A stretch of 64,000 nt of DNA, taken from the sequence record MH383160; one strand, written 5' to 3'. This stretch comes from Escherichia phage UB. Each line of letters opens with the position of its first letter. Position 1 is the stretch's first letter. Below are positions 42,291-42,875 of the stretch, piece by piece. The notes beneath the pieces are model-generated. The model did no database searches, was not told where the DNA came from, and saw nothing but the letters and a program-made list of their open reading frames with translations. The translations under genes and the position numbers were made by a program.

Positions 42291-42548
42291 TTATCTCATA
42301 GATCTATGCCAACAATTACGCGGATCTCTTTTAAAAGTACTATCATGATCCTCCTGGCAAGTAATACAATACATGCACCCTATAACGGCCTGGCGTCGAT
42401 TCTCAGGAATTTTATCGCCGCAGTCGAGGCAATGTACCAGTGATTCTCTTTGTGCGTTAATTTGCTTTCTAGCGTGGTTAACGGCGGCCTGAATCACTGC
42501 GTTAATCTCGTCTTGTTCGGCCCCATCTTTCGCGAATCCTACAGCCAT
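42291..42548 (-). CDS. TraR/DksA-family-like C4 zinc-finger protein (putative)
   Basis: ORF track 85 aa; CLDCGDKIPENRRQAVIGCMYCITCQ matches CxxC-N17-CxxC spacing of TraR/DksA zinc fingers. Confidence 0.55.
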   Translation of the reverse strand: MAVGFAKDGAEQDEINAVIQAAVNHARKQINAQRESLVHCLDCGDKIPENRRQAVIGCMYCITCQEDHDSTFKRDPRNCWHRSMR

Positions 42549-42806
42549 TATTTTAACCTCATTATAAAAATACTATAGTACTGTAATGCGACAATAATAT
42601 TACTTGTTCTTACTTTTTCCAATCCACATGATACCACATATTCATCCCCATATGTGCGGAACGATACACCATGAAAATTTTTATACACTTGCACTACTAA
42701 TCATAACCTTTCGTCTAACCAACTGCATAGAATTATACTACTTTACGCAAATTGATCAAGTATTGATCAGATCATTTTTTGATCAATATTATACAGTTAC
42801 ATTTGT

Positions 42807-42819
42807 GCACCCTATGGGT
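42807..42819. repeat. conserved intergenic box GCACCC-N3-GGGT
   Basis: gcaccctatgggt in the long leader downstream of promoter 42847..42875. Confidence 0.45.
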
Positions 42820-42846
42820 TAGTGACGTTCTCGTCTTGATGTAAGT

Positions 42847-42875
42847 ATTATGCCAGTACTGGATGATATTGTCAA
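42847..42875 (-). promoter_or_regulatory. sigma70-like promoter
   Basis: minus strand TTGACA-N17-CATAAT; would give ~300-nt leader before 42291..42548. Confidence 0.45.

Follow-up and report, generated by a model that had tools for sequence, protein, structure and literature searches.

What drives the gene for a small zinc-finger protein that lies some 300 nucleotides (nt) behind a strong predicted promoter in a jumbo phage, and is the interval between the two a regulatory leader or something else? We looked into this question in a 64,000-nt stretch of Escherichia phage UB (sequence record MH383160), called the window here, whose numbering is used throughout. The gene, which we refer to as dksA, is read from the minus strand, the gene direction at the locus. 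The surrounding 1.6 kb is closest to Escherichia phage JP4 (98.5% identity) and 90 to 98% identical to PBECO4, 121Q, SP27, and other Asteriusvirus jumbo phages. The early program of the Rak2-like 350-kb phages is almost wholly uncharacterized, and the literature searched held nothing relevant on transcriptomics or noncoding RNAs of Asteriusvirus or Rak2-like phages.

We propose, with a probability of about 75% for this architecture, that a modular early-gene cassette precedes the DksA/TraR-like gene. On the minus strand, the order would be a promoter (P1), an RNA element of ~59 nt, A/T-rich GATCAA repeats, a second promoter (P2), a small gene that we name orf48, and the zinc-finger gene, which would be cistron two of an orf48-dksA message starting at P2, with a further contribution from P1 read-through. 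Sequence comparisons bear out this arrangement and the coding nature of orf48, as well as the multicopy, promoter-linked nature of the RNA element and the covariation of its hairpin, the nonrandom, conserved character of the GATC repeats, and the absence of the cassette from related phages. The main features, with the type of evidence in parentheses, are as follows.

42548..42879, minus strand: 332-bp cassette with P1, RNA element, GATC repeats/P2, and orf48 (bounded by a direct repeat)
42847..42875, minus strand: P1, predicted sigma-70 promoter TTGACA-17-CATAAT with TG before the -10, predicted transcription start site (TSS) at ~42840 (consensus scan)
42786..42844, minus strand: structured RNA element, 59-nt model span (covariance model R1, 61.8 bits, E of ~3e-13)
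42732..42759, minus strand: P2, predicted sigma-70-type promoter TTGATC-16-TATAAT, predicted TSS at ~42725 (consensus scan)
42548..42694, minus strand: orf48, 48 codons, homologue of 121Q gp293 (conserved frame, substitution ratios)
42291..42548, minus strand: DksA/TraR-family (YbiI-like) C4 zinc-finger gene, 85 amino acids (aa) (Pfam, PHROG, and PDB matches)

orf48 and the 332-bp cassette

A preliminary description of this DNA had presented the interval upstream of dksA as a leader devoid of open reading frames (ORFs), yet orf48 fills nearly half of it. This frame opens with GTG, and its TAA stop shares the last A with the ATG of dksA (TAATG). We compared a 351-nt interval between the window and the 121Q clade (~80% identity): orf48 is exactly 147 nt long with zero indels, 18 to 23 of its 37 to 40 differences fall in third codon positions, and the ratio of nonsynonymous to synonymous substitution rates (dN/dS) is 0.14 to 0.38 in frame, compared with 1.8 to 4.6 in the other two frames. 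Since its length is conserved, its differences are biased toward third positions, and dN/dS is low in this frame only, we conclude that orf48 is a real, translated-looking gene coupled to dksA. It matches PHROG 38664 and is annotated in 121Q (gp293), WPEC3, CMSTMSU, Turkey3, and PBECO4. We also considered orf48 as a paralogue of a neighboring 59-aa ORF; the match (15 residues only, E = 0.001) was too weak.

The segment from P1 to the end of orf48 is flanked by a 9-bp direct repeat, TTAAAATAA, at 42880..42888 and 42548..42556, and a phage of the phAPEC6 type (ph0011) lacks exactly 42879..42548. In that phage, a 65-aa ORF, the homologue of 42880..43077, runs at its end (...GGTTAAAATAATGG) straight onto the start of dksA. 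Twenty-six of the 41 matching genomes cover 80% or more of the leader query. Because phAPEC6-type phages are without the segment, we regard it as a cassette and not as a dedicated leader of dksA; such cassette-minus relatives, already sequenced, offer a natural deletion control.

Downstream of dksA, a GNAT acetyltransferase gene (41871..42284, minus strand) has a perfect promoter of its own (TTGACA-16-TATAAT, 42284..42257). PBECO4 (locus L002) and several Salmonella SD phages lack the entire unit, another indel of the cassette type.

A recurrent RNA element behind early promoters

The GCACCC-N3-GGGT box mentioned in the preliminary description is present at 42807..42819. Read on the transcribed strand as CCC-N3-GGGTGC, it occurs nine times in the window, always 20 to 30 nt past the -10 of a sigma-70-type promoter. 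A covariance model (R1) built from the nine copies and run over the 64 kb with filters off returned exactly these nine (E of 7e-10 or lower), all within 34.9 to 52.2 kb; a tenth, degenerate copy (core 51972..51948, minus strand) was seen by eye. Further copies appeared in a pattern scan of IMG/VR (RaK2, GAP32, CBB, 121Q, and ~350-kb contigs), and R1 gave 99 matches, 87 of them distinct, in 262 kb of Rak2-like loci. The hosts of the element are Rak2-like phages of Escherichia, Klebsiella, Cronobacter, and Pectobacterium/Erwinia; 121Q has ten copies, all in 136.5 to 153.9 kb (85 kb scanned). The copy upstream of dksA comprises three parts.

42835..42824, minus strand: hairpin H1 (GACG-AGAA-CGTC)
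42819..42807, minus strand: invariant core ACCCATAGGGTGC, the GCACCC-N3-GGGT box on the transcribed strand
42800..42795, minus strand: 3' arm of a second hairpin

This copy directly follows P1 and begins within ~10 nt of the predicted 5' end of the transcript. Copies of the element are almost always preceded by a sigma-70 promoter, and the distance from -10 to core is 25 to 28 nt in 46 of 60 copies. Of 90 distinct flanked copies, ~28 are followed by a second promoter on the same strand and ~27 form convergent pairs.

H1 consists of a 3- to 5-bp stem and a purine- or A-rich loop of 4 to 8 nt, often GNGAAA. Its three modeled pairs occur as GC33/CG18/UA7/AU3, CG21/AU20/GC18, and AU21/CG19/GC13, with between three and five Watson-Crick or wobble types at each pair. 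The covariation score was 0.314, compared with at most 0.066 in slid registers, and was reached by none of 500 shuffles; by mutual information, the three pairs ranked first, second, and fourth. The CCC/GGG core pairs are found in 100% of the sequences (the variants being two U-A and two U-G), and RNAalifold picks the RCCC-N3-GGGU pairing. An alternative hairpin, GGGUGCN/NYRYYY, is compatible with 90% of cells and shows wobble-to-Watson-Crick changes only. In a subset of copies, the second hairpin is followed by a U-run and is a terminator; in the copy upstream of dksA, it carries a G-A mismatch (GTAACT for GTATCT), which favors read-through.

Rfam 15 gave no match overlapping the copies (E cutoffs of 10 for 41500-43700, 5 for 47500-53500, and 1 for four Rak2-like loci), the scans of the region and of the other copies returning chance-level matches elsewhere only, and we found no description of the element in the literature searched. 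A promoter-linked RNA from behind ~10 near-consensus promoters should rank among the most abundant early transcripts; this one, outside Rfam, is apparently undescribed.

Three other identities for the element were rejected. A small ORF is contradicted by the copy at 42818, which has no start codon after the TSS, by a TAG in the core in one frame, and by the changes in H1, which are compensatory and not codon-like; overlapping ORFs such as 44436..44549 and 40400..40492 were judged spurious. The fixed 25- to 28-nt spacing from the -10 hexamer speaks against an integron attC-like recombination site. As for a CsrA-type decoy, inspection of the alignment revealed a GGA loop in only about half of the copies, and the copy upstream of dksA has ACAAA.

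Several copies have settings of their own. The one at 48311..48450 (plus strand) is transcribed against all neighboring genes and ends at a strong hairpin and T-run, ACGGGGAGTTATTATCTCCCCGCGTTGTTATTT, which predicts a stand-alone RNA of ~105 nt. Convergent copies, such as 51902 (plus strand) with 51972..51948 (minus strand), have mutually complementary cores, so that read-through would form a long hairpin. In 121Q (locus L128, 38583..38704), "gene 270" is annotated over a convergent pair and is unlikely to be a true gene; the same probably holds for a plus-strand ORF of JP4 (locus L001, 2330..2524) over the element upstream of dksA. Several GenBank "hypothetical proteins" over copies of the element are likely misannotations.

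Two predicted promoters and a cluster of GATC palindromes

P1, at the position given in the preliminary description, matches 11 of 12 consensus positions and is nearly identical in the 121Q clade. It had been called the only good promoter upstream of dksA; we found a second one, P2, with 10 of 12 consensus positions and a perfect -10 that is invariant in the 121Q clade. Four other cassettes of the window (37122, 40392, 44415, and 50353) share one layout, namely, promoter, RNA element, ~40 to 46 nt, tacTTGCAT/TTGCAA-16-TATAAT, and gene, and P2 (tacTTGATC-16-TATAAT) is the positional counterpart of their second promoters. Two observations together would speak against a transcribed leader, a promoter immediately upstream of the gene and an untranscribed interval. 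The first is predicted, in the form of P2; the second is not, as no intrinsic terminator is predicted in 41500-43700, hence none between P1 and dksA, and P1 transcripts would therefore read through into dksA. The orf48-dksA message probably starts at both promoters.

TTGATCA, reported earlier to occur three times, indeed lies at 42752, 42763, and 42779 on the plus strand. One of the TGATCA sites is at the same time the -35 hexamer of P2. The repeats organize as follows.

42753..42769, no strand: O2, perfect 17-bp palindrome TGATCAA-TAC-TTGATCA, one arm of which is the P2 -35 hexamer (palindrome scan)
42769..42785, no strand: O1, imperfect palindrome GATCA-N5-TGATC with 2 mismatches (palindrome scan)
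42754..42784, no strand: cluster of four GATCs at spacings of 11, 5, and 11 bp (counts)

One of the four GATCs (42754, 42765, 42770, and 42781) falls within the P2 -35, and the three others lie at most 27 bp upstream. The window as a whole is depleted of GATC (130, compared with 200 to 228 expected); this cluster is its densest, with ~0.02 such clusters expected by chance, and O2 is its sole perfect site (0 mismatches). Among the AT-rich Rak2-like loci fetched, this cassette alone has at least four GATCs in 60 bp. Over the 50 nt around the sites, the 121Q clade is only ~68% identical (counted by eye on the alignment), yet it keeps three GATCAA hexamers at the same spacing (0, 11, and 27). The position of O1 is conserved as well; a perfect palindrome, TGATCAA-ATC-TTGATCA, is also found there, but just downstream of the P2 -10.

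We favor recognition of the palindromes as DNA, by Dam/SeqA or by a dimeric protein acting on P2, because the arms are conserved in sequence without compensatory change and O1 keeps its GATCs. The palindromes would then be a binding site or a Dam methylation switch that sets P2 activity. By eye, FNR, IHF, LexA, and DnaA boxes fit the repeats poorly; a possible fit to the Fis consensus, GNNYRNNWNNYRNNC, was noted. A search with the E. coli Dam sequence gave no Dam homologue in the window and 121Q 100-150 kb (114 kb); among related phages, CBB and GAP32 have adenine methyltransferase genes (PMC5259590). With such a cluster on the promoter of a gene for a putative RNA polymerase (RNAP)-binding protein, one could ask in a compact setting if a virulent jumbo phage senses how far its own DNA is methylated or replicated. 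Three further GATC sites (42301..42350) fall in the final 60 nt of the zinc-finger ORF and make up the second densest cluster of the window.

The zinc-finger protein

The preliminary description had placed the product of 42291..42548 in the TraR/DksA family, and sequence comparisons with profiles and solved relatives bore this out at the domain level. The protein contains CLDCGDKIPENRRQAVIGCMYCITCQ, that is, CxxC-N17-CxxC (C40-x2-C43, 17 residues, C61-x2-C64), which is the C4 spacing described for TraR (PMC9239242); C58 and C79 are extra cysteines. It matches Pfam PF01258 (zf-dskA_traR; E = 3.9e-9, 36.8 bits where the curated cutoff is 24.9) and PHROG 54 ("DksA-like zinc-finger protein"; E = 5.7e-19). 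Among solved proteins, E. coli YbiI comes closest (PDB 2KGO; E = 6.4e-12, query residues 1 to 69), and the TraR structures 5W1S/6N57 match as well (E = 7e-6, query residues 18 to 71). These sequence matches to Pfam and to the solved YbiI and TraR settle the fold family. The gene carries a DksA-like annotation in JP4, 121Q, and others, and tblastn detected relatives in 533 phage records, many labeled "DksA-like" or "TraR family." Copies with 65 to 74% identity reside in ~170-kb contigs that we take to be T4-like (GenBank matches include UPEC07 and vB_Kpn_F48), where an unrelated small ORF lies upstream, its stop overlapping or adjacent to the gene in a TAATG-type arrangement. Judged by its sequence, the gene is real, ordinary, and already known, with annotations in dozens of phage genomes; what is new here is the cassette around it, with its apparently undescribed RNA family.

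By homology, the protein would bind the secondary channel of host RNAP. In TraR and lambda Orf73, the DxxDxA motif of the N-terminal helix (D3, D6, and A8 in TraR) is critical for function (PMC9239242). In the ungapped HMMER register, these three residues fall on A6, G9, and E11 of our protein, the homologues of which keep D8, E11, E14, and A17. The subfamily instead has an N-terminal MAVGFAKDGAEQ.E...A and a C-terminal FKR(D/E)PRNCWHRSMR. Between the jumbo phages and the ~170-kb T4-like contigs (loci L103-L122), MAVGFAKDGAEQ and FKR(D/E)PRNCWHRSMR are nearly invariant and the middle is variable, a pattern suggestive of two conserved contact surfaces not shared by TraR. Overexpressed YbiI reportedly rescues the auxotrophy of a dksA-null strain (data not shown in PMC2613031).

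Weighing of the architecture and of possible functions

A number of points weigh against the architecture and mechanism that we propose. P1, P2, and both TSSs are predictions from sequence, and in the 121Q clade, the P2 -35 is merely TGGATC. For orf48, the presumed start codon is GTG here but TTG in 121Q, its Shine-Dalgarno (SD)-like AAAGG is far off at 12 nt upstream, and JP4 is annotated with a 29-codon version only. Binding of the protein to the secondary channel, deduced from homology, meets the difficulty that one defining feature is missing: DxxDxA is absent, the nearest acidic pattern being D8-G-A-E11-Q-D13. The core pairings of the RNA element (CCC/GGG or GGGUGC/YRYYY) lie beyond proof by covariation because the core is almost invariant, and a DNA-level role for the core is conceivable. 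When the sequence upstream of the core was searched naively for hairpins, stems of at least 4 bp appeared in 74% of copies, compared with 47% of shuffles; the excess is modest because A/T-rich promoter sequence yields spurious stems, and our structural conclusions rest on the model-based alignment instead. Lastly, the scans for the element covered the 64 kb here and 85 kb of 121Q.

From these features, we infer functions for the RNA element and the GATC repeats. The element would work as RNA through its invariant RCCC-AYA-GGGUGC core, either by acting on the transcribing RNAP, as HK022 put RNA does, or by binding a conserved partner as a released small RNA. At slightly less than even odds, we suggest that an RNA family fired from ~10 strong early promoters per genome acts on RNAP, put-like and with no need of a protein factor, or on a titrated RNA-binding or defense factor and is joined here with a unique Dam site/palindrome switch that controls a YbiI/TraR-like gene.

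A serious candidate, though one that we would not bet on, is a stand-alone, multicopy small RNA of ~60 to 110 nt that acts in trans through the core. Some 10 strong early promoters would deliver it in bulk, and it would decoy, sponge up, or guide a conserved factor of the host or the phage; copies devoid of their own terminator would be freed when the A/U-rich tail is processed. The convergent pairs, as well as antisense copies, with no gene downstream are consistent with this, as is the subset of copies ending in the second hairpin and U-run or in a separate terminator; the pairing of the second hairpin, compatible in 90% of cells, also agrees. Phages of several host genera share an invariant 12-nt core, and H1 keeps its structure only, as expected for recognition by one conserved partner. 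However, most copies in the window have no terminator before the next promoter and gene, and the partner or target is purely hypothetical, complementary sites having been considered within the element only.

Slightly less likely, in our view, is a cis-acting modifier of RNAP in the nascent transcript, similar to put or to nut/boxB. Polymerases from the element promoters would then resist pausing and termination and cross the stem-loop terminators of the early region, and those from P2-type promoters would not. The convergent and terminated copies favor the small RNA, whereas the recurring layout of promoter, element, second promoter, and gene favors this modifier. It also agrees with the start of the element within ~10 nt of the sigma-70 TSS, at a fixed distance, with a size of ~60 nt and two or three stem-loops resembling HK022 putL, with the frequent GNGAAA loop of H1, which recalls boxB loops, and with the terminator hairpins that overlap the -35 of several element promoters. 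Against it, ~30% of the copies are convergent or face no gene, similarity in sequence to put or nut is zero, one window copy reaches a strong terminator (48420..48450) ~50 nt later, and another directly precedes a U8 run; such terminated copies suit a discrete small RNA better. An operator for a phage protein, a processing or stability element, and a DNA-level role make up the remaining options for the element.

For the GATC repeats, we consider it improbable that they matter as RNA or as origin-like DNA and not as a promoter operator. As RNA, the TGATCAA palindrome would fold into a hairpin of the P1 transcript or would be, in 121Q, the 5' hairpin of the P2 transcript, where the perfect palindrome occupies about +5 to +21, the place of the 5' stem-loop in other cassettes; the minimum-free-energy fold of the window leader does pair the palindrome arms. 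As an origin, A/T-rich 11-mers initiated by GATC would serve as an unwinding and SeqA-binding element primed by the P1 transcript; repeats beside a strong promoter recall, by analogy, the 13-mers of oriC and the transcript-primed origins of T4 and ColE1. But the two clades have the same arms and show no compensatory change, and O1 retains GATCs and not complementarity; the stem is A/U-rich and lacks a U-run, and only one of the ten element copies has such repeats.

Least probable of all is that P1 is the sole promoter and the ~300 nt to dksA a dedicated noncoding leader (attenuator, riboswitch, or small-RNA-like): P1 is the better consensus match (with its TG), its transcripts probably carry the sequence as a 5' region, and the fold of the 147-nt stretch is somewhat more stable than that of shuffles (z = -2.2), but purifying selection acts on orf48 in one frame only, P2 sits at the typical position of a second promoter, the structured part is a multicopy module with ~30% of its copies in convergent pairs lacking a downstream gene, phAPEC6-type phages keep dksA without the segment, and homologues in other phages have unrelated upstream regions. 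From the earlier suggestion of a regulatory RNA or an operator region, both a structured RNA element and operator-like GATC palindromes on a promoter were recovered, and the single-promoter leader dedicated to dksA found no support.

Other features of the early region

Many early promoters of the window are followed by a 5' hairpin, GGGGAGAA-N3-TTCTCCCC, and an SD sequence. A palindrome, CAGTACTG, stands immediately before the -10 of early promoters (e.g., 36817, 39666, 39936, 41245, and 43980) and recurs, with no -10, 10 to 20 nt past several copies of the RNA element; it may be a protein-binding site. At four element promoters (~34990, 37250, 40515, and 44540, minus strand), a terminator-like hairpin, GGGATTGACTCCGGTCAGTCCC then TTTGCTATT, overlaps the -35 (TTGACT). 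A second ORF-less, structured-looking element, ACATCAGGACGGGGAACGAAACAAGTAACCCCGTTAAGTAGTCCAGGAGTAAG...CCTCCCCTGATAAAATAG, is present in two copies (40290..40385 and 50250..50345, both minus strand), each with a TTGCAT/TTGCAA-16-TATAAT promoter on one side and a third promoter on the other; Rfam gave it a chance-level match only (Methylobacterium-1, E = 4). Iterated TAGCCGTYTAGCC and CCAGAC repeats with no long ORF extend over 52290..52470 (plus strand), in an ORF-poor stretch (51600..52850). This repeat region could be an origin or iteron-like region; 121Q has a matching unannotated gap of 2 kb (135.2-137.2 kb) with two copies of the RNA element. ARAGORN detected no tRNA or tmRNA in the window.

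Comparison with known systems

The protein shares with TraR, lambda Orf73, and DksA the zf-dskA_traR domain, the CxxC-N17-CxxC spacing, and a small size (85 aa), and the helical segment before its domain aligns with TraR residues 15 to 68. Carriage by a phage fits the phage TraR homologues that have been tested (PMC9239242). Unlike TraR, it has no N-terminal DxxDxA and starts with a 10-residue extension, MAVGFAKDGA, followed by E11-x-x-E14-x-x-A17, as do YbiI-like and T4-like phage homologues; TraR, in turn, lacks the C-terminal tail FKR(D/E)PRNCWHRSMR conserved in the group of our protein.

As a whole, the cassette recalls the PeSL cassettes of T4-type phages, which pair an early promoter with a stem-loop (Arbiol et al. 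2010, PMC2839356; Comeau et al. 2014, PMC4122927). Shared traits are strong sigma-70-like early promoters, an A/T-rich upstream region, terminator stem-loops, an SD sequence, and a small ORFan gene, together with gain or loss of cassettes between close relatives at short repeats, as in the 332-bp indel. The window has 20 promoter matches, all but one in 35 to 53 kb, in a PeSL-type layout, and presence/absence was seen for both the 332-bp segment (ph0011) and the GNAT cassette (PBECO4). The GGGATTGACTCCGGTCAGTCCC/TTTGCTATT hairpin is a similar composite of terminator and promoter. In contrast, PeSL as described lacks a conserved ~60-nt post-promoter element with a CCC-N3-GGGUGC core, and the junction of our indel is a 9-bp repeat at ORF ends and not the promoter/stem-loop.

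Dam/SeqA-sensitive or GATC-rich control regions include IS10 pIN, P1 cre, Mu mom/OxyR, oriC, and P1 oriR. P2 resembles promoters of this type in having several GATCs in and just upstream of its -35, with 11-bp phasing, in a GATC-depleted genome. It differs in that the 7-3-7 palindrome could equally be an operator for a dimeric protein.

The RNA element, for its part, may be likened to HK022 put and lambdoid nut, short (~70-nt) multihairpin RNAs located right after early sigma-70 phage promoters; the A-rich purine loops of H1 recall boxB. The put RNAs act as RNA, and putL starts just after PL and needs host RNAP only (PMC9378689). The element differs from put and nut in sequence, to which it has no similarity, in its ~10 copies per genome, and in the many copies that are convergent or face no gene. 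Compared with the put stem-loops, its position and size fit, H1 alone is proven by covariation, and antitermination by the element would be an analogy.

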